A stretch of 64,000 nt of DNA, taken from NCBI GenBank assembly GCA_963758525.1, contig CAVWVQ010000003.1, positions 2,080,001-2,144,000 of the forward strand. Reading direction: 5' to 3'. Under the pieces are notes generated by a model that did no database searches, was not told the DNA's origin, and was given only the letters and a program-made list of their open reading frames with translations. Each line of letters opens with the position of its first letter. Positions within the stretch are counted from its first letter, which is position 1. Positions 30,766 to 58,953 of the stretch are shown here, piece after piece. Source of the stretch: an uncultured Phycisphaerales bacterium (lineage in GTDB: Bacteria > Planctomycetota > Phycisphaerae > Tepidisphaerales > Tepidisphaeraceae). A program made the translations under genes and the position numbers.

Positions 30766-31593
30766 ATGAAGGGCGTTATTCTGGCGGGAGGTACGGGGTC
30801 GCGGCTTTTTCCGCTGACCAAGGTGACCAACAAACATCTGCTGCCGGTCTATAACAAGCCGATGATCTATTACCCCGTCGAGTGCATGGTGCGGGCTGGC
30901 ATCGAACAGGTGCTGCTGGTGACGGGCGGCAACAACAGCGGTGATTTCATCCGCCTGCTCGGCAACGGGCGGGAGTTTGGGCTGAAGAATCTCAACTACA
31001 CGTATCAGGAAAAGGCTGGAGGAATCGCCGAGGCACTTTCGCTGGCGGAGCACTTTGCCGAGGGAGAGCCGATTTGTCTGATTCTTGGAGATAACATCGT
31101 TGAATACGCCATCAACGACTGCGCGCAGCGGTTCGCGGAGCAGAAGATTGGCGCGAAAATTCTGCTGTCGCAGGTGGAGAATCCTTCCGCCTACGGGATC
31201 GCGGAGATGAAGGGGGAGGCGGTTGCCCGGATTGTCGAGAAGCCGAAGGAGCCCAAGAGCAACTGGGCGGTGATCGGGATTTATTTTTTCGATGGGAAGG
31301 TGTTCGAGATCGTGCGCACGCTCAAGCCGTCGGCACGAAACGAACTGGAGATCACGGACGTGAACAACGCGTATATCCAGCGCGGCGAGATGACCGCCGA
31401 CAAGCTGAACGGGTGGTGGGCGGACGCCGGCGAAAACATCGACTTTTACCTGAAGGCGTGCAATAGGGTGGCGGAGTCGGGAGCGAATAAGGAGGGGGGA
31501 GGCACGAAGGCACTTGGGGGAGCAGGCACGGAGGCACGGGAAGAAGCAGGCACGGAGGCACGAAGGCACGGAGGCACGGAGGGAAGGAAGTAG
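30766..31593 (+). CDS. rfbA: Glucose-1-phosphate thymidylyltransferase
   Basis: GVILAGGTGSRLFPLT..NKHLLPVYNKPMIYYP, EKP, ELEITD; first gene of the rfbACBD cluster. Confidence 0.88.
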   Translation: MKGVILAGGTGSRLFPLTKVTNKHLLPVYNKPMIYYPVECMVRAGIEQVLLVTGGNNSGDFIRLLGNGREFGLKNLNYTYQEKAGGIAEALSLAEHFAEGEPICLILGDNIVEYAINDCAQRFAEQKIGAKILLSQVENPSAYGIAEMKGEAVARIVEKPKEPKSNWAVIGIYFFDGKVFEIVRTLKPSARNELEITDVNNAYIQRGEMTADKLNGWWADAGENIDFYLKACNRVAESGANKEGGGTKALGGAGTEAREEAGTEARRHGGTEGRK

Positions 31594-43402: not shown

Positions 43403-44037
43403 ATGAGCACAACGTTGCAATTCCGCCAGATGGTTTCTTCCAAACACCAGGCCGTGCGGCGCTGGGCTCAGCACTCGCTTGGAGCAATCGAGCACGAAGA
43501 CCGCGTCGCCCGCACCGCCGAGGCTCTCGCCCGCGTCACATCCGCTTACCATTGCCTGACCTTGGCCGATCTTCGGCTCCTCGCGCTCGCCGCGGTCGTT
43601 CACGATGTCGGCCGGAGCATCGACGATGAGACCCACCCCCGCCAGGCGCGCGGATGTTGCTCCATGAGCCAAGACTCCCCCTCAGCAACGATGAACGCCG
43701 CTGGCTCGCCTACCTGACGCGATATCATCGCGGCTGCGTTCCCGATCGGGGCTGCGACGGCATCCTCCGCCGTTCCGACCCGCACGCGCGCCTCGCGCTG
43801 CTGCTGGCGTTTCTCCGCGCCGCCGATGCGCTGGACAGCCGATCCGCCGAAACACCGCAACTCAATTTCAGTCTGCATGGCGGAAAGCTGCGCATCCTCT
43901 GCCACATCGAGGACCCCAGCCCCAAAGCCTGCCGGGTATACACGCGACGCAAGAAGTTTCGTCTTCTGGAAGAGCTGTTGAATCTGCGCGTCGATGTGCG
44001 GATTGTCACGGAAACTGCCTCGTGCGCGGCCGCATAG
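43403..44037 (+). CDS. Stand-alone HD-domain protein resembling the Ppx/GppA C-terminal domain; apparent frameshift near 43650
   Basis: HEDRVA, AAVVHDVGR..H, RYHRG, LRAADALD. Confidence 0.75.
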
Positions 44038-44653: not shown

Positions 44654-44806
44654 AAGGCACGAAGGCACGAAGGCACGAAGCACGAAGGCACGAAGGGAAG
44701 GACGCTGCGCGGCGGAGTAGTTATTATCAAATCCCCCTTCCTTACCCTTCGTGCCTCCGTGCCTCCGTGCCTTCGTGCCTTTCCCTCTCCGTCCCTTCGT
44801 GCCTTC
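44654..44806. repeat. GGCACGAA octamer-array inverted element
   Basis: Arrays face their reverse complements; the spacer is near-identical to the 49188 copy. Confidence 0.85.
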
Positions 44807-46001: not shown

Positions 46002-46715
46002 TCAACTCCCGGGTGATCCTGTCGATTTTACTTCGCCAAATTTCAAGATGGCTTCCACACAAGGCGGACCAGGGACTCCAGGAAGACGATCCTCCTCTGA
46101 TCCAGCAGTTGAGCCGGTCGTGGGCATCAACTGATAAATCCTGTCCGCATGCCGCTCGAACATTGCCGAATCATGGTGGCTGATCATCAGCACCTGAAAC
46201 CCCAGGGTTTTCCCGGCCTCGCGAACGATCGCGACCAGCCGCGGGACCAGCGACGGATGCAGCCAGCAGTCCTGCTCGTCGAGCACGAGAAACCGGCGGT
46301 GTTCCTTTTCGTCGAGTGTGGTCAAGGCCAGGAGCCGCAGGCCCACCGAGAGGATGTTGGCGACGGAGCCGCCTTGCCCGTCGATGATGTTCTCCTTTTT
46401 CCCCTGGCGTTCGATGTGAAACTCGATCGACGCGACGCCGTTCTTGAAGCCGCGCTCCGCTTTCAACTGGATCGGCTGCTCCAGCACCTCCTGCAATGCC
46501 CGGCTGAGCTGTGATTCCACCGCCGCGATGACCTGCTGAAAAAGCTGCTGGCCCAGCAGATCCAATGCATCGCGCACGGCATCGGCAACCGAGAGGTATT
46601 CGGCGAGCTTCTGCTGTTCGCCCGCGACGAAGCGCCGCCGCTCCGCCATCGCTTCGCGGCGATGCACCAGCCGATCGCATCGGCGGCGCAACGCATCCGG
46701 CATCGGAACGCTCAT
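46002..46715 (-). CDS. C-terminal ABC-ATPase half of a split SbcC/Rad50-like protein
   Basis: Coiled coil, signature-like QGGSV, Walker B FLVLDEQ, H-loop MISHH; no Walker A. Confidence 0.8.
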   Translation of the reverse strand: MSVPMPDALRRRCDRLVHRREAMAERRRFVAGEQQKLAEYLSVADAVRDALDLLGQQLFQQVIAAVESQLSRALQEVLEQPIQLKAERGFKNGVASIEFHIERQGKKENIIDGQGGSVANILSVGLRLLALTTLDEKEHRRFLVLDEQDCWLHPSLVPRLVAIVREAGKTLGFQVLMISHHDSAMFERHADRIYQLMPTTGSTAGSEEDRLPGVPGPPCVEAILKFGEVKSTGSPGS

Positions 46716-46716
46716 C

Positions 46717-47010
46717 TCACGCGTCGCCAAAATTCTTCTCCGCTTCGCCGAGGTCGGCTTCAATCTTCTCGAGGTGCCGCTGGTACTCGGCGCGCTGCCG
46801 TTCGTTCTCGGCATTCATCGCTTCGAGCTGCCTCTGCAGCTCGGCAAGATCGTCCGTCTGGAACTGCTCACGCGCCTCCTGCTTCAGGCGGGCAAGCTGC
46901 TCCTCGGCATTTTTCAAGTCGGCCGCGGCGGTGATCTTCCGCTCGTTGAGCTTCGCGTGACGCTGGCGCAGCGATTCGATCGATTCCTGTTTTTCTGTTC
47001 TAGCTGGCAT
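46717..47010 (-). CDS. Small coiled-coil protein (middle piece of the split SbcC system)
   Basis: Heptad-rich 97 aa with FQTDDLAEL; coupled to both neighbours. Confidence 0.7.
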   Translation of the reverse strand: MPARTEKQESIESLRQRHAKLNERKITAAADLKNAEEQLARLKQEAREQFQTDDLAELQRQLEAMNAENERQRAEYQRHLEKIEADLGEAEKNFGDA

Positions 47011-47950
47011 CGTGCAGCACCTCATCGGCCAGCGCGAGAATCTGATCGCGCATGCGCTGGTCGTCAAATTGTTCGAGATTGCGCCGAAGGAACTCGCGGA
47101 CTCCTTCGCCGGACGTTTTGAACTTCTGCAGCGCGGCAAGCCCCGCGACGAACTGCGATTCTCCCAACTCGACATGATCGCCGACGATCTCGGGGTGAAA
47201 GACTTCCTCGAACGGCGCGTGCGGCACCGCGATCGTCGTCGCGATCCACGCCAGCGGCGTCACGTCAATCCGAAGGACGGATGGACGGTGTTCCCGAATG
47301 GCGTCGCTCCGCTTGATCCGGCTGATGTTGCCGGGATTGCACCACGTCGTCGCGCCGCACACCACCTGTTGTGCGGCTTTGTGAATATGCCCGTTGATCA
47401 GCAGATCGATGCCGGGAATCTCGTGGCATTGAATGGCCGAGCCCAGAAATTCTCCCGCGCCAAATGCGATATCGTGATGCGTGATCCAGAATGTCCAGCG
47501 CGGATCGCCCACCTCGGCGCGGTCCACCCGCGCAGGCAATGGCTGTCCCCAGCTGGTTCCCCCGACGGCAATGGACACGCCGTTGATCTCGCCGGTCCAC
47601 GTTCCCCGGTCGAGCAGTCGGAGCCGGCCGGCAGCGAGGAGGATCGAAAGGGTGTCGTTGTCCACCAGCGCATTCTCGCTGCAGTCGTGATTTCCGCCGA
47701 CGGTCAGAACGAGCTGGCCTTCCAGCACCCGCATCAATTCAACGGTCACCCAGTTGGCATTGTCGCGCGGGTAGTGGAACAGATCGCCCAGCACGATCGG
47801 CAGCAGCCGCTCGCGCCGGGCCAGATCGAGGCACCAGCGAAACTTCGACAGCGTCACGCGCGGATAGTCGTCCTTGCGGAATCCGGGGACCCGGCTGCAG
47901 AGGTGCGGATCGCCAATGCAGAGAATGCCCGCATAAGGCAGCTCAAACAT
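47000..47950 (-). CDS. SbcD/Mre11-like metallophosphoesterase nuclease
   Basis: GDPH, LGDLFH, GNHD, THH, NGHIH, NPGNISR. Confidence 0.85.
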   Translation of the reverse strand: MFELPYAGILCIGDPHLCSRVPGFRKDDYPRVTLSKFRWCLDLARRERLLPIVLGDLFHYPRDNANWVTVELMRVLEGQLVLTVGGNHDCSENALVDNDTLSILLAAGRLRLLDRGTWTGEINGVSIAVGGTSWGQPLPARVDRAEVGDPRWTFWITHHDIAFGAGEFLGSAIQCHEIPGIDLLINGHIHKAAQQVVCGATTWCNPGNISRIKRSDAIREHRPSVLRIDVTPLAWIATTIAVPHAPFEEVFHPEIVGDHVELGESQFVAGLAALQKFKTSGEGVREFLRRNLEQFDDQRMRDQILALADEVLHDAS

Positions 47951-49160
47951 GCGCGTGCTCCGCTTCGAGCACCGCTTCGCAAGTCGTCGGGGCGCCGCAG
48001 GTCGGGCAATTCGGATGCGCGTCCACCCACGCGCGCACCTGCTCGCGCAGCCCGTCGATTGCCGTTTGCGCCAAAATCAGATCGGCTTTCGCGGCCGTGC
48101 GCCGAGCGGTCAGCTCTCTGCCGCGCGAGATCAGGTTCTTCATCGCCAGTGGCCGCTGAATATTTTCTTCCGGCGGACCGGACAAGGCCATCAGACCGCG
48201 ATCGATTGCCTGCGCCTGGCGGGATTGCATGAGGGCAGCGCGCATCTTCTCAGTCAGCAGCCGCAGCGCGCTGGGGTCACACCAGCGCGGCGGAGATCGA
48301 AGATCCTTCACCACTGCAGCTCTGATCTGATGCTGCCGCAGGCCCGCGGAGGCTCTGGAAATACCTTGAATCGTTTTCACTAATTTCGAGGTGTCGATCC
48401 ACGCTGGCGGGGCCATCAGCGGCTCGGCGGCGCGCACGCGATTCGCCTGTGTTTCGCGTTGTTGTCGCGCCCGGCCGAGACGATCGACAGCATTCTTTCG
48501 CGATAACATCGCGCGATCTGATTCGGCAAGCGCTCGGTACGCCTCTTCGAGTCGCGCCGTCCGTTCCGACAATTCCGTCACGGGCGCGGTCGATTCGAGC
48601 CGTCGATCCAGCGCCGCCGCTTCTGAAGCGAGCCGGTCATGATCGCGCCGGGCGTCCTTTACCTTCTCACGATGTCGCTTCTGCATCTCCAGGAGCTTTT
48701 CGGCATCCGATGAGCTGGCGAAAAACGTCGCCGCTCGCGCGGGAGGGTCATCCAGCAGGAAAATCGGTGACTTCTGCAGGCCAAAATGGACAAAGAACGA
48801 ATCGCCCGAATCATTTGGCGGATCGATGCGCGGCATGCGCAGATAGCGATGCAAATCCTCAGGAACATCGCCGCGCAGACGTCCGATCTCGCGGCCGTCA
48901 ATGACGTAGCTGACAACACCCTTGCGCCGCTGCCAGGTGAGGACGTGACCGTCATCGGTTTCGACGGTGACCGACGCGTCCTTTTCCCCGTGCCGCACCG
49001 CGAAATCCGCCGGCTTGTTGTAGCAGAGCGTCTGCAGCGCATGCACAACCGCGGATTTGCCGCAGTTGTTTGGACCGACCAGCACCGTCAGCCCCGCCGC
49101 CGGCTCGATGACGGTCCGTCCGTGGGCCATGTAATTCTCGAGGATGATCCTCCGGATCAT
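47943..49160 (-). CDS. N-terminal half of a split SbcC/Rad50-like ATPase ending in a zinc hook
   Basis: I.LENYMAH, Walker A GPNNCGKS, Q-loop FGLQ, coiled coil, CPTCG 15 aa from the end. Confidence 0.85.
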   Translation of the reverse strand: MIRRIILENYMAHGRTVIEPAAGLTVLVGPNNCGKSAVVHALQTLCYNKPADFAVRHGEKDASVTVETDDGHVLTWQRRKGVVSYVIDGREIGRLRGDVPEDLHRYLRMPRIDPPNDSGDSFFVHFGLQKSPIFLLDDPPARAATFFASSSDAEKLLEMQKRHREKVKDARRDHDRLASEAAALDRRLESTAPVTELSERTARLEEAYRALAESDRAMLSRKNAVDRLGRARQQRETQANRVRAAEPLMAPPAWIDTSKLVKTIQGISRASAGLRQHQIRAAVVKDLRSPPRWCDPSALRLLTEKMRAALMQSRQAQAIDRGLMALSGPPEENIQRPLAMKNLISRGRELTARRTAAKADLILAQTAIDGLREQVRAWVDAHPNCPTCGAPTTCEAVLEAEHAHV

Positions 49161-49187: not shown

Positions 49188-49332
49188 AGAGGCACGGGGG
49201 ATAAGGCACGGGGGAGAGGCACGGGGGGACAAGGCACGAAGGCACGAAGGGGAGGACGCTGCGCGGCGGATCTTTTTTATCACATCCCCTTCCTCACCCT
49301 TCGTGCCTCCGTGCCTTCGTGCCTTCGTGCCT
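49188..49332. repeat. GGCACGAA octamer-array inverted element
   Basis: Same arms and ggacgctgcgcggcgga spacer as the 44654 copy. Confidence 0.85.
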
Positions 49333-52050: not shown

Positions 52051-52230
52051 AGGCACGAAGGGAAGTGAGGGAAAGGCACGAAGGCACGGAGGCACGGAGG
52101 CACGAAGGGTAAGGAAGAAGACTCTCGTGAATCAGAGCGAAGCCACAAAAATCCCCTTCCTTCCCTTCGTGCCTTCGTGCCTCCGTGCCTTCGTGCCTTT
52201 CCCCAGCTTCCCTTCGTGCCTCCGTGCCTT
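52051..52230. repeat. GGCACGAA octamer-array inverted element
   Basis: aggcacgaaggcacggaggcacggagg faces ccttcgtgccttcgtgcctccgtgcc. Confidence 0.85.
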
Positions 52231-53966: not shown

Positions 53967-54611
53967 TCACCCGGCTTCGGCGATTCGGAGCGATCGTGAG
54001 TCGATCGGCACCTGTTCCGCGTGCAGGTCGGCCCACATCGCGGCCTCGCCGTTGAGCGGGCTTTTAATGTTGTACGCCTGATAGGCGATCATCTCGCCAA
54101 TGCGAACGGCCAAGTCGATCAGGCGTTCGCCGGCGGTCCAATGATCGCCGACGCAGATGGTGCGGGCGTCGATATTGGGGTGGAAGATCGGGGTGAGCAT
54201 CTTGCAATGAGGGCTGAGCCGGGGGTAATCGCTGGTCAGTTCGATTTCAACCAGGTGGGTGTCGCGAACGATCGGGTCGTTCCCCTTGCCGCGCTCCAGA
54301 CCGCGAACGAAATACTCCAGTTGATAAGTGGAAGGGGGATCACCGACGGCGGACTTGAGCCGGATCGGTCCGTCGGCGGCAAAGGTCCGAGCCATCAGCT
54401 CGGCATCCGCACGCAACCGCCGGACGCGCATGGGAATCCTCGGCGCTGGCGCCCGGGAGGTTGGCGGCGCCGCAGCTGGAGCGTTGGGAACGGTCAGCAC
54501 CGCGCCGCAGGTCTTGCACGACGCGCGACGGCCGGCGTACGCGGGCGGCACCGAGAACGCCCGACCGCATCGATCGCACTGAAAACTGATCATTACCGCG
54601 TCGGCAGCCAT
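53967..54611 (-). CDS. Ubiquitin-conjugating enzyme E2 (UBC fold) with N-terminal zinc ribbon
   Basis: YPRLSP...TPIFHPNID..TICV (HPN plus catalytic Cys), W, SPLNGEAA; N-terminal CDRC..CKTC. Confidence 0.88.
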   Translation of the reverse strand: MAADAVMISFQCDRCGRAFSVPPAYAGRRASCKTCGAVLTVPNAPAAAPPTSRAPAPRIPMRVRRLRADAELMARTFAADGPIRLKSAVGDPPSTYQLEYFVRGLERGKGNDPIVRDTHLVEIELTSDYPRLSPHCKMLTPIFHPNIDARTICVGDHWTAGERLIDLAVRIGEMIAYQAYNIKSPLNGEAAMWADLHAEQVPIDSRSLRIAEAG

Positions 54612-55573
54612 GTTCTTCCACCTACCCACCAATAATATGAGAGAGCCAGGCCCGCGACGGCGCCGGTCAATGAAACTGCGATCGAAAGAAAGACAACTCT
54701 TCGCTGGCGCTGGGGCCTGGCCCGAAACAAGTAGAGCAGCGCCGCCGCGCCCGCGACCAGCGCGGTCGCGCCGAAGGTGAGCGTCCCCGCCACCGCTCCC
54801 AGCACGCTGACGGCCAGGAGCGCATACGCCAATGGCATGCCGCCATGAGCGAGTGCGAGATGCTCCTCCAAAGGAAGGGACGAAACCACGGGCGCCGCGT
54901 CAGGCTCGCGCAGTGCCGCTGAGTTGACCTGCGAGCAGCCGTAGACGGAGCAACCGCCGTTTTCAGTCCAGCATTCGATGTGAAACAGGGCTTTGCACGA
55001 CGGGCATTGTTTGGTTTCCTCCCCCGGTTGGATCGCGCCGTGGCATATGCCGCATTGAGCCGGCGGACTCTGCGGGGTGGTCGCGTCCGGCCGCGCCGGA
55101 CCCACGGGCCGCGGAACCGCGATTGGCGCTCCGCAGATCCGGCAGCGACCCCGCTTGCCGGCGGCGTCCCACGGCGCCCACATCGGAGCGCCGCAGGTGC
55201 AGTCAAATACAATGCCCGCTTCCGGCGAGGGCGTCGGCTGTGCGCGCTGGTGGAGGTCCAGCGGCGTGGCGCCAACAGGGATGGCCTGCCCCTCCTCCAG
55301 CCGCAGCGCCAACGACCCGATGCGAATCCGGTCGCCGGGCCGAACGTCAGTGCGGACGACAACCCGCTGGTCGTTGACAAACGTACCGCTTTTGCTGCCG
55401 GCATCGGCGATGAAGTGCGTGCCGTCGGCGGTGACGCCGATCCAGGCGTGAATGGGCGCAACCGCTTTGCTGGCGGCGCGGACCTGGCTCTCGGGCCGGC
55501 GTCCGACGATGACCCGGCCGCTGATGACACCAGCTTCCATCTTGCCGTCATGTTCTACGATCAGTAGCGCCAT
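54593..55573 (-). CDS. FHA - zinc ribbon - RING finger - TM protein (putative E3 ligase)
   Basis: FHA (VGR..H..SKSGTFVN..GDRIRIG); CTC..CRIC; CGIC..CPSC..H..CW..GGC..GC; C-terminal TMs. Confidence 0.82.
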   Translation of the reverse strand: MALLIVEHDGKMEAGVISGRVIVGRRPESQVRAASKAVAPIHAWIGVTADGTHFIADAGSKSGTFVNDQRVVVRTDVRPGDRIRIGSLALRLEEGQAIPVGATPLDLHQRAQPTPSPEAGIVFDCTCGAPMWAPWDAAGKRGRCRICGAPIAVPRPVGPARPDATTPQSPPAQCGICHGAIQPGEETKQCPSCKALFHIECWTENGGCSVYGCSQVNSAALREPDAAPVVSSLPLEEHLALAHGGMPLAYALLAVSVLGAVAGTLTFGATALVAGAAALLYLFRARPQRQRRVVFLSIAVSLTGAVAGLALSYYWWVGGRTWLPTR

Positions 55574-55588
55574 GAATCCCCGCGGTCC

Positions 55589-56816
55589 TCAGCTGGTTCG
55601 ATCCTGAAATAGAAAGATCGTCGATCCCACCGTGATCCGGTCTCCGTGGCGCAGCCGAATTTTCGAAATCGGCTTGTTGTTGATCATGGTTTTCTGTCCC
55701 AGCGGCAAATCTTCCAGTTCATACGCGCCGGGCACAATATGAATTGCGGCGTGCCGCGGGCCGACCTTGGCGTCCTTAAAGAGATAAATCTGGCAATCCG
55801 GGGCGCTGCCGATGAATGTCGGATTTCGGTAGAGGATGAACTGTTTGCCCGCCAGCACGCCGGCAATGACGCGGAGCCAAGCGGTGCGGGCGGCGTTCTC
55901 GATCAGGCCGGTTCCGATGCCGGAGATGACGCCGATCGCAAGCAGCGCCATCAGTCTCGAGTCCTGCGCTGTCAGTGAGGCGCCGCACCGGCTCGAACAG
56001 CGCGCCGCCGATCAGTCCGCCGATCAGTCCGCCGGCCATTCCAATGGCGAGCTTTTTGGGATTGCGCATCACCACTCCCGCGCCGGCGACGAGAAACAGT
56101 CCGAGGATTCCCCAGGAGCCGGTTTGCACCATCGATTCGGTCAGATGTCGCGGGCCGGCGGTTTGGCGCAGGACGTAAATGAACATCGCCGACGCCAGCC
56201 CTCCAAGCAGACCGAGCAAGGCGGCGACCGAACCGTTGGTCAGCGCACTGGCGAAATTGCGTTGCGTCAGCGGCTCGGCGACGGCAAGACATGCCGCGAT
56301 CAGCATCCCGCAGATGCCGAAGATCAGCGCGTTGCTGATGAATTCCTTGGCGCGGTCGCGCGCCGCGATTTCCGATTCGCGCGTATCCCGCTCCGCTTGC
56401 GACAGCTTCGGATCGGTTTCGATTTCAAAATAGGGATTGTCCTGCCCGTCGGCGCGGATCAGCGCCAGCGCCTGGTCGGCCTCGTCGGCGCTGGATCGGC
56501 CGGTGTCGCGGGCGGCGGTCACCTTCTGCATTTCATGAATCAGATCCGCCGCCTCGGCTTCGGTGGCGGGTTTGAACTGAAGCGCCACCCCGCTTCCCCA
56601 CGCCAGCAGCCCCCCGAGGATTCCGAAAGCGGCCATGTACACGATCGAGTTATAAATGAGCTTGGGCCGGCTCGGTCCGGTCGTTTCCGGGACCGCGTCG
56701 GCGTCGAGCTTCGCATAGGCGCGATTGCGCTCCATCGCCTTCTGCTCGCTGATGCGAGTCTCGACTTTGCGGCTCTGCAGATCGTCCCAGGTTACGACAA
56801 GTTTTTGGTTTTCCAT
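55589..56816 (-). CDS. Polytopic membrane protein with C-terminal FHA domain; apparent frameshift near 55958
   Basis: Gly-rich TM helices, then AWLRVIAG.LAGKQFILY..IGS...HA.I..LRHGDRITVG. Confidence 0.78.
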
Positions 56817-56837
56817 GGCAGTACATCTCCACAGTTG

Positions 56838-57686
56838 TTACGAATTCTGACCCGAAGGCGGGCGCACCGCCGCCGGCATCGTGCTCGGCTCGCGATCGGC
56901 CGGATCATTGGCTTTGGGCGACCCGCGGTTTACGCCGACGACGAACAAAAACACCATCAGCGGCCAGACCAGCGCGACCAGCCCGACTGCTCCCAATCCC
57001 GCCATGATCCATTTTTGCCGCTGCTCCGCCGCCTGGAGGCGCGACATCAAGTCGCTCAACGTGCCCGAGGAAACTTTCCCGTCGGCCGGTATAACCGCGG
57101 GTGGTGCGACTCCCGCCGGACGCGCCGCCTCGCCGTTTGCAGGCAGAACGAGAAATGGCTCGTTGACCGTCTTTCCCGCGTGCCAGACGAAGACGCCCTC
57201 TTCCCGGCTCTTGGGGTCGTATACCAGCGCGATCTGCCAGGGTTCCGCGAACCAGTTCGCCTGGATGAAGTCGTCCATCCCCGACAGAAAAATCCCAAAG
57301 CCGGGGTGCGTGTGATACCACCCGACGAATTTCTTATCGGGAAACTCCCGGTCGCGCACCTCGTTGACGTGCGTCCAGGTTTCGGAAGTGATGGTCACCT
57401 GCGTTTGCTTTCCGGCCGAAAAGTTTCCCCGGACGCTCGCATCGATCAGGCACCACGGGCCCTTCTCGTCGTGGAAGACGCTGCCCAGCAATACGCCGCA
57501 TATTTCGATGTCGCTGGTGGCTTGGCCGTGGGCGTGAATATCGTCCAGGACCGATTGGAGGATCGCGACCTGGTATCGCCGCTCGCGCACCTTTGCCAGG
57601 GCCGGCAAATCGCGGCGCGGAAAGTCCTCGGCACGGAGATGGGCCGCGTCGCGGCCGGTCGAAAGCTGTTCGTTGGTCAGAGCCAT
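56838..57686 (-). CDS. JAB/MPN+ (JAMM) isopeptidase with C-terminal coiled coil and TM anchor
   Basis: EICGVLLG..GWYHTHPGFGIFLSGMD (intact E/H/H/S/D); TM WIMAGLGAVGLVALVWPLMVFLFVVGV. Confidence 0.9.
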   Translation of the reverse strand: MALTNEQLSTGRDAAHLRAEDFPRRDLPALAKVRERRYQVAILQSVLDDIHAHGQATSDIEICGVLLGSVFHDEKGPWCLIDASVRGNFSAGKQTQVTITSETWTHVNEVRDREFPDKKFVGWYHTHPGFGIFLSGMDDFIQANWFAEPWQIALVYDPKSREEGVFVWHAGKTVNEPFLVLPANGEAARPAGVAPPAVIPADGKVSSGTLSDLMSRLQAAEQRQKWIMAGLGAVGLVALVWPLMVFLFVVGVNRGSPKANDPADREPSTMPAAVRPPSGQNS

Positions 57687-58953
57687 TCCAACGCCTCGGA
57701 ATCTGCCAGCGGCCCCAGGACGCGCGGCGCGTCGGCGGCCAGCTCCAGCCCGATCGCGCGGTCGCCGGCGCGCGCGATGAGCACATCGAACAACGGCACC
57801 CCGATGCTCGCCAGCGGCTGATCGAGAAAAGATTCGTCGCCGCGGATGGTATGAAATGTCACCGGTTCGCGGCGGACATTTGGGCCGCAACTGCAGAAAG
57901 CCGCCGAGGCCGGCACGCGCCCCAGCGATGCGAACATCGTCTCTTCTTTTCCGCAAGCGGGGCAGACCAGCTTGTGCAGAACGTCGCGCGCGAACTCCAG
58001 CCCCGCGCCCGCGCCAAGACGCTGGCGCACTTCGCGAAGCAAGTCGCCGGCGGTATGCGTCAGCGCCGACGCGTCGAGCGGAATGATTTCCTGGAGAATC
58101 TCGTGACTGTAACAACTGGCTTTGCGTTGAAACTCCACCTGATACGCTTCGGTGCTCAGCCCGTCAAAAACAAACCCGCGGCCGCGGATGGTCTCCAATC
58201 CGTGCAGCAGCTTAACGGCTTCCTGTGACTGCACGCCGGCGATGATCGAGCTGATGGTCGGCGTGGTCGGGGTGTGGCCCGTTTCCATCTGCTCCCGCGA
58301 GAGAAGATTGCACGAGCGTCGAGCCTGGAGCAGTCGCCAGTCGGTCTCCGACATGGTGCATTCGTAGCAGGGCCCGTCGGGCGCGAACACGCGCGCGGTG
58401 CCCTGAATTTGCTCGATGGCGCCGTCAATCCAGGGTCGGTTGCAGCGCCAGCAGTTGCGGTTGATTGCAAGGCGCGCCTCGCGGTTATCGAGGCCGCCGA
58501 TGACGACGTCCGCCCAGCGAAACACGCCGACGCCCAGGTCGTACACCACGTTGCCGACAAAGGCGTGTGCTTTGATCTGGGGATAAATTTCCCCGGCCGC
58601 GCGAACGGCGACCTCAGCCTTGAAAGCGCCGTTATCGGCGGCGCGATAGAGCACCGAGCGCGAGAGATTCGAGTTTTCGATGCGATCCAGATCCGCGATC
58701 AGCAGGTGACCGACGCCCAGCAGCGCCAGGTTTTTGACGATCTCATTGCCCAGCGCCCGGCGCCGACGACGAGAACCTTCGCCCTGGCCAGCTTCTCCTG
58801 GTCCCACCACTCGATCAGGCGAAAACGATCAAACCGGTCGGAAACAGCGGATTGCGCATTGTTGAGGTCGATGCGAAGGCGCGGCCCATCGGGCGACGCT
58901 TCGGATTCGGCGCACGCGCTGTCGGCGACGTTGAACGGATTGGGACGCGTCAA
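57677..58953 (-). CDS. Ubiquitin-activating enzyme E1 (ThiF/MoeB fold with C-terminal extension); apparent frameshift near 58757
   Basis: DRFDRF..WW.Q, GAGALGNE (restored by one G), D.DRIENSNLSR, LDNREAR, CYEC, RRSC (probable catalytic Cys), CPAC..CSC. Confidence 0.9.

Follow-up and report, generated by a model that had tools for sequence, protein, structure and literature searches.

The best-described machines of the kind considered here are the Mre11-Rad50 and SbcCD complexes, in which a single ATPase chain carries both lobes of an ABC head and a hook at the apex of its folded-back coil, with the signature LSGGE and the D-loop segment DEGFGTLD in E. coli SbcC, and in which the nuclease partner SbcD has about 400 aa. 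Phage versions are shorter: T4 gp46 is one 560-aa chain of canonical order and its partner gp47 has 339 aa, and SbcC and SbcD are practically universal in jumbo phages, according to the accessible part of PMC7824862. Phage 0305phi8-36 encodes an Mre11-Rad50 fusion, gp8 (Yoshida et al. 2011, PMC3175470), in which one P-loop segment was not observed, as stated in the available portion of that paper. Here we describe a locus of four minus-strand genes, given the working names N, D, S and C, at positions 46002..49160 of a 64,000-nt stretch of DNA (the window) from an uncultured Phycisphaerales bacterium (assembly GCA_963758525.1, contig CAVWVQ010000003.1). The analysis confirms the locus: a Rad50/SbcC-type ATPase is truly split here, with an Mre11-like gene separating its parts, and the split is conserved. 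Our preferred reading, to which we give better than even chances, is that the four genes encode a likely DNA-end-processing nuclease of the Mre11-Rad50/SbcCD type, with a head made from two proteins, which is probably a mobile-element-derived stand-in for SbcCD.

The arrangement proposed in an earlier note, made from the letters of the window without database searches, was borne out: four coupled genes in the order N-D-S-C, all intact, with Walker A, Q-loop, coil and CPTC in the first, the nuclease second, a coil third and the signature, Walker B and H-loop in the fourth. N (47943..49160, 405 aa) is the N-terminal half of the ATPase (AAA_23 over residues 4-67, E 1.7e-9; phrog_16465, E 1.2e-18) and carries lobe I, with Walker A GPNNCGKS at residues 29-36 (49053..49076) and the Q-loop glutamine Q129 (48774..48776). 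An ascending coil of ~95 residues follows, then three 39-residue helix-proline repeats (48069..48419; consensus L..PP.L.D...L..Li..L..A), whose copy number differs among genomes, a 45-residue helix and a terminal zinc-hook-like CPTC (residues 385-388, 47997..48008); the stop codon comes 17 residues later. D (47000..47950, 316 aa) is predicted from sequence to be an Mre11/SbcD-like metallophosphoesterase nuclease (Pfam Metallophos, E 3.9e-8; hhalign against SbcD, probability 67%, E 5e-5), and its motifs GDPH, GDLF, GNHD, HHD and GHIH are all intact, ahead of a short helical C-terminus. S (46717..47010) is a coiled protein of 97 aa, fixed in length, with a central F/Y-G-T-D-D turn and only generic coil matches in Pfam; it is a conserved member of the module. 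C (46002..46715; phrog_15167, E 4.9e-7; weak SMC_N and AAA_21 matches) is the C-terminal half and carries lobe II, in which a descending coil of ~70 residues leads to the signature GQGGS (46365..46379), Walker B FLVLDE (46275..46292) with QDCWL(H/R)P in place of the D-loop, and the H-loop ISHH (46173..46178). It may start at the ATG at 46715 (237 aa) or at 46703 (233 aa), and an identical database protein, P0005, has 233 aa. N and D overlap by 8 nt and D and S by 11 nt, and 1 nt separates the stop of S from the first start of C. The Leu-x-x-Pro-Pro repeats, three copies spaced 39 residues apart, and the loss of the D-loop aspartate, with DEQDCWLHP in the protein of the window, go beyond the earlier note.

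In its ABC head with Walker A, Q-loop, Walker B and H-loop, its Rad50-type fold (modelled on a permuted relative), its CxxC motif after a helix, for which zinc binding is predicted, and its coupled calcineurin-like nuclease with five metal-binding motifs, the locus resembles SbcCD. There are also differences. The head lobes lie on separate genes, the signature is GQGGS and the D-loop aspartate is missing, the hook stands at the chain end and not at the apex so that no descending coil follows it, the arm contains proline-broken 39-residue repeats, and there is an extra gene S and the order N-D-S-C. D is ~85 aa shorter than SbcD and falls below detection by the NCBIfam sbcD model. Because it lacks three defining features, namely the single chain, the signature with D-loop and the apical hook, we class the system as a variant of SbcCD and do not call it SbcC. 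For the nuclease cap domain and the Rad50-binding helices, a Pfam search gave no SbcD_C match in D. At family level none of the four proteins is matched by an NCBIfam or PADLOC model, PHROGs holds separate families sized like N (phrog_16465, 491 positions) and like C (phrog_15167, 211 positions), and current annotation misses the family, C being labelled hypothetical or ABC transporter ATPase.

Could errors in sequencing or assembly, or the decay of an sbcCD pseudogene, explain the split? The same assembly does contain frameshifts: its canonical smc (G000:C2:361232-364902) is interrupted and spread over three frames, probably owing to indels in the assembly, so that other apparent splits in it need care. 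For N-D-S-C, however, this explanation is refuted by conservation and retains practically no probability. A scan of 185,579 species genomes gave 319 pattern matches, 310 of them confirmed, and in 75 of the best 80 of these 310 loci the order N-D-S-C holds as far as the contigs extend (58 complete, one with a frameshifted N, 16 in order up to a contig end). These 80 loci come from Planctomycetota, Thermodesulfobacteriota, Spirochaetia, Poribacteria, Zixiibacteriota and others. Among the remaining five, one has S and C separated by an open reading frame that by eye resembles a transposase, with N missing from the vicinity, and four have C alone; three of these four genomes were searched, two of which carry an intact N-D-S on another contig, while no N was found in the third. 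In metagenomes, the order was found in all 22 loci with at least 3.3 kb upstream, 58 shorter loci being left out of this count. The ratio of substitutions points the same way, as the nonsynonymous rate (dN) lies far below the synonymous rate (dS) in all four genes and in 9/9 pairs, with dS saturated in some, and a nuclease gene stands between the ATPase halves. Thus both the exclusion of a frameshift and the conserved gene order, on which the earlier note had staked its proposal, held.

The motifs are conserved with the order. The 57 complete loci have GxNNxGKS in 56, a CxxC ending N in 54, GQGGS in 57, and four nuclease motifs in 57, GNHD being detected in 54. No variation is seen across 50/50 alignment rows at the Walker A lysine, the Q-loop, the Walker B DE or the H-loop, and the same rows all have GQGGS and DEQDCWLxP where E. 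coli SbcC has LSGGE and DEGFGTLD. The divergent signature pointed out in the earlier note is supported. C has 2001 homologues of 129-413 aa. It is present in 5 of 40 relatives, each time with D, S and a whole or partial N in unchanged order; one of these carriers (G004) is unpublished, and no conclusion rests on it. A sixth C match among the 40 (G028) belongs to an unrelated ATPase and was excluded. The host genome, which is 91% complete, has one copy of each of the four genes, and the canonical sbcCD that the earlier note proposed to look for gave no match in it with TIGR00619 or with E. coli or planctomycete SbcC and SbcD queries.

The best matches beyond the split family, found by a profile search of 1.84 billion representative proteins, are proteins of 570-780 aa with the C half at their N-terminus. 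Among 102 relatives of at least 430 aa, 95 read C-then-N (94 ending in CxxC), seven match C without a complete N-lobe, and none has the N-then-C order of SbcC. These permuted ATPases, annotated only as AAA family ATPase, share the motifs, the repeats and the terminal CxxC with the split family, and their genes occur on 21 plasmid records, of which the 20 listed span 253-1261 kb. Two of them, pMPPla107 and an Alteromonas plasmid, read S, C-N, D, which in cyclic terms is the order of the window locus, next to topoisomerase, helicase and rep genes on the former and recQ on the latter. The split layout is kept in dozens of other bacteria and is rejoined in swapped order on giant plasmids, where C and N form one chain. 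We found no printed description of the megaplasmid ATPases.

These natural fusions bear on the assembly of the head. An AlphaFold model of one of them, P0187 (73 rows), has pLDDT values of 79-98 when residues 11-450 are taken in blocks of 10; it shows kinked helices at 12-84 and 374-458 and repeats of low confidence. Fold searches with this model (VIA, Foldseek) returned Rad50 and SMC heads as the best matches (9a9j_A, Z 11.1, rmsd 2.7 A over 145 aligned residues), and long antiparallel coil alignments cover model residues 10-464, which is consistent with pairing of the two long helices. N modelled alone is unconfident at 111-150, the region where lobe II should pack; this model otherwise has helices at 152-245, two linker-split repeat helices, the 45-residue helix and a CxxC hairpin. 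A precedent for two-chain heads is the P. furiosus Rad50 head (PDB 1f2t/1f2u), listed as two chains of 149 and 145 residues that together bind ATP. The existence of C-N fusions in nature, and the confidence with which one is modelled, make it very probable that N and C assemble into one ABC head. In two genomes (G259 and G260; loci L130 and L131 with L041 and L080) N-D-S and C lie intact on separate contigs, which we count in favor of our preferred reading. A complex prediction for N and C with S as partner scored 0.16 (mark 0.32) and gives no evidence either way.

In known ABC ATPases the signature serine and the D-loop aspartate act across the head dimer. The replacement of both suggests an altered engagement of the heads or a slower ATP cycle. 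It also raises the alternative that the head binds ATP but barely hydrolyses it, or acts away from DNA ends, for instance as a static clamp, so that the Rad50-like shape is kept and the cycle is not. The serine has become an invariant glutamine in the split family and T, R, S, N or A in the permuted kin, the D-loop reads DCWLxP, and D is degenerate on two megaplasmids. We nevertheless regard this alternative as improbable, given that the lysine of Walker A, the Q-loop, the DE of Walker B and the H-loop do not vary and that the D motifs are intact in the chromosomal family.

The composition of the arm departs from what had been proposed for the window. The earlier note had Rad50 split into three polypeptides, with the whole antiparallel arm assembled in trans; two of the three, the ATPase halves N and C, stand, while only gene order, through the position of S in D-N-S-C phage clusters, suggests that S is part of Rad50. 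In the corresponding alternative, a repair complex has a full antiparallel arm of three chains, in which S connects the hook-bearing end of N to the C coil. S directly precedes C in the chromosomal and plasmid forms, it lies between N and C in phages phBC6A51 and 0305phi8-36, where the descending arm would be coded, and its helical halves are each about as long as the 45-residue pre-hook helix of N. However, in 51 loci the distance from the head to the CxxC of N falls into classes of 229-230, 266-271, 305-317, 343-354 and 384 residues, with steps of ~39 that match the L..PP repeat, whereas S has no indel and C at most two, and the Spearman correlation with N arm length is 0.01. S and C therefore cannot line the variable arm, and S either binds a constant segment or acts apart. 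In addition, proline-rich linkers break up the repeats of N, the coil of C (~73 residues) nearly covers the head-proximal coil of N (85-94), and a comparison of S with canonical SbcC by hhalign found no specific homology (probability 0.9%, against 0.6% for the reversed control). A three-chain arm is thus improbable, and the claim of an arm built entirely in trans was not upheld.

The end of the N profile (positions 407-470) matches Rad50 hook structures (6zff, E 3.4e-5; 1l8d, E 1.8e-3). For S, matches in PHROGs were to generic coils (head scaffolding in 24/50 members, SbcC-like in 6/50), and the ESM Atlas returned only clusters without names. Covariation between chains in 58 paired rows did not recover its positive control, the N coil against the C coil, and so says nothing on S. 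Homologues of S were found in phBC6A51 (P 1e-4) and pMPPla107 (P 3e-4), aligned with it at the central turn.

Split forms also occur in phages. The order is N, x, S, C, x, D in phBC6A51 (x, an intervening gene), with helicase and MCM genes nearby, and N, D, a 94-aa coil unmatched by the S model, C in Mvi-JY20. In LR745208 N, D and C are spread over 8 kb; in Magritte C, N and an S-like gene lie far apart. In Tunturi_5 the genes uvsX, ruvC, ssb and dnaB are followed by N, an S-sized coil and sbcD; no C half was found in the 18.5-kb stretch examined. The gp8 fusion of 0305phi8-36 (A7KV18) is the top viral structural match of N (E 1.5e-14) and corresponds to D fused to N, in contrast to the separate genes of opposite order in the window. 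The P-loop segment missing from gp8 is found three genes on, in gp5, and the phage as a whole reads D-N fusion, weak S, x, C, that is, the canonical order D-N-S-C. The short ATPase and nuclease and the position of related split genes in phage replication-recombination clusters recall T4 and jumbo phages; T4 gp46, however, groups with canonical SbcC in both trees that we built.

A phylogenetic comparison with SbcC and gp46 was suggested in the earlier note. In the C-lobe tree (51 rows, seven canonical) split and permuted forms are joined with support 100/92 and the split phages are added at 99/96, with a warning of long branches. One origin of split, permuted and phage forms is plausible from these sequences, although we claim no donor. 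The lineage probably descends from the replication-recombination modules of phages and megaplasmids, and probably replaces SbcCD where the host has none. Two scans of IMG/VR confirmed no relative among 53 and 20 pattern matches, the patterns being suited to close kin only, and a search with phrog_15167 across 201 genomes had no match anywhere, with controls also blank, and is uninformative. Five C-half proteins of 475-531 aa (P0135, P0142, P0143, P0147 and P0153) have an unrelated but mutually similar C-terminal extension.

Of the two functions offered in the earlier note, a repair complex or an SMC-like defence nuclease, our data favor the former. Repair or recombination is preferred because the partner is of Mre11 type, the phage and plasmid kin lie in a replication context, and the module does not overlap with SbcD-like genes. 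Among 221 genomes surveyed in the phylum, 69 have an SbcD-like match and eight the split module, with an overlap of 0/8 (~2.5 expected); in one family (f17) the module is present in 6/14 genomes and an SbcD-like gene in 4/14, again without overlap.

A system acting against phages or plasmids in the manner of Lamassu, whose Rad50-like part would sense foreign DNA ends and release D to degrade the DNA of the invader or the host, is the strongest competitor. Its patchy spread across phyla, from Planctomycetota and Thermodesulfobacteriota to Spirochaetia, Poribacteria and others, fits, since such a distribution is common among defence genes, as does a self-contained operon with no conserved neighbours. 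PADLOC gives weak matches to LmuB, GajA, AriA and mad3 (best E 4e-9), and among 28 loci there is one with cas3 two genes away and one with a Bpu10I-type endonuclease close by. LmuB is itself a short Rad50 relative with a CPxCG hook, and LmuABC combines it with a small third gene and a nuclease partner, as described in the available text of PMC10586767. The same portion of that paper has LmuB as a single chain, often with a Walker B E-to-Q change, and the effector as variable and not Mre11-like, whereas D is always of Mre11 type. The LmuB model matches only weakly (E 3.6e-6), D has no PADLOC match and S no LmuC match. In the flanks of 28 of the 57 complete loci, taken with no matched control, only 7 of 127 genes have a PADLOC match at E 1e-15, and six of these are generic (UvrD, kinase, AAA, Uma2, HTH-peptidase, PD-DExK) and one is a true cas3. 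The other nameable flanking genes are mostly metabolic, transport or translation genes, the phage copies are placed in replication modules, and the window neighbours are an MFS transporter and a beta-lactamase-fold serine hydrolase at ordinary GC. With generic P-loop matches and housekeeping flanks, a defence function appears unlikely. Other families differ as well. Wadjet or canonical SMC would call for a hinge domain, kleisin and KITE partners and the Toprim nuclease JetD; library scans found no hinge, kleisin or JetD match, and the partner is a metallophosphoesterase. SbcE (YhaN-YhaO; PMC2811018), one long AAA_27 chain with a central domain next to YhaO, differs in that AAA_27 matches only residues 20-89 of N and the ATPase is split.

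Several observations weigh against a DNA-end-processing complex as described above. The residues that act in trans, the signature serine and the D-loop aspartate, are both replaced while the cis motifs are invariant. The D genes beside permuted ATPases on the two megaplasmids examined (L022:9656-10462 and L023:9757-10680) have lost several metal-binding motifs, which suggests a nuclease-dead partner. The exclusion with sbcD is weak, as the kin are not independent and 144/221 genomes have neither match, and the module is patchy, being present in 5/40 relatives and 8/221 genomes of the phylum. No shared motif points to SOS control, as 52 upstream regions have no palindrome or 7-mer in common beyond what shuffled sequences give. 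The N-lobe tree, which has 49 rows after a motif cut removed P0190, P0246 and L113, sets the split and permuted forms apart from canonical SbcC only weakly (78/52) and, together with the long-branch warning for the C lobe, leaves the origin and direction of transfer not established. Finally, the nuclease, ATPase and in vivo roles of N-D-S-C are all predictions from sequence and models.

Around the locus, 8-base-unit intergenic arrays, often inverted pairs and REP-like, are found at 31525-31580, 44656-44779, 49233-49331 and 52075-52228 of the window, one inverted pair sitting just upstream of N. Genome-wide there are 197 such arrays in 125 clusters, against none in 2 Mb of shuffled sequence, and they give rise to false extensions of reading frames. 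About 5 kb upstream of N-D-S-C and without a link to it, a ubiquitin-like conjugation cluster occupies 53967-58810 on the minus strand (ThiF/E1, JAB protease, membrane protein, FHA with prokaryotic RING, and a UBC/E2 domain protein). On the plus strand at 43403-44037, two overlapping reading frames of 104 and 127 aa resemble one frameshift-broken HD-domain protein, with no Pfam match at E 1e-4.

In the repair complex that we propose, N and C would lock through a shared beta-sheet and an antiparallel coil of ~70-90 residues, as predicted from the fused permuted relatives, and two such heads would sandwich ATP. A dimer of D may dock at the base of the coil through its helical C-terminus. The rest of N would be a rod built from one chain, made of 39-residue repeats and with CxxC at its end; the tips of two N chains may share one zinc. 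S would be an accessory of fixed size, most simply what is left of the descending arm, packed against a constant helix of N. The machine is expected to load on DNA ends or hairpins and to trim them for recombination repair, with D making the cut. Such an assembly would show that this family can do without its usual single folded-back chain. More tentatively, and with somewhat less than even chances, a separate clade of Rad50 may have been spread by phages and megaplasmids, settled in chromosomes and abandoned the folded-back chain: its head would be two-protein or permuted, its arm length set by the copy number of the repeat rod, its zinc clasp terminal and its signature/D-loop interface rewired, with S as a new subunit and DNA-end processing kept.

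In the literature we found no account of a Rad50/SbcC family that is split or permuted, although Krishnan et al. 2020 (NAR, on ABC ATPase classification) or its supplements may list the clade; the accessible parts of PMC7824862, PMC10586767, PMC2147016 and bioRxiv 2021.05.15.444277 do not mention a split or permuted SbcC. The locus is thus an uncharacterised, real and conserved architecture of a known machine. Engineered truncations are the usual means of asking how Rad50 uses its coiled coils and zinc hook to detect DNA ends and to communicate with the head, a question that is still open. The family offers natural experiments on it: a two-gene head, a circular permutant, a hook without a return helix, arms whose lengths vary by whole 39-residue units, and substitutions in the signature and D-loop. 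The single proteins, of 97-405 aa, are small and can be expressed separately. The family also accounts for phages and plasmids in which half of SbcC seemed absent. If the tentative view of a clade without the folded-back chain is true, the long antiparallel coiled coil would not be needed for Mre11-Rad50 function.

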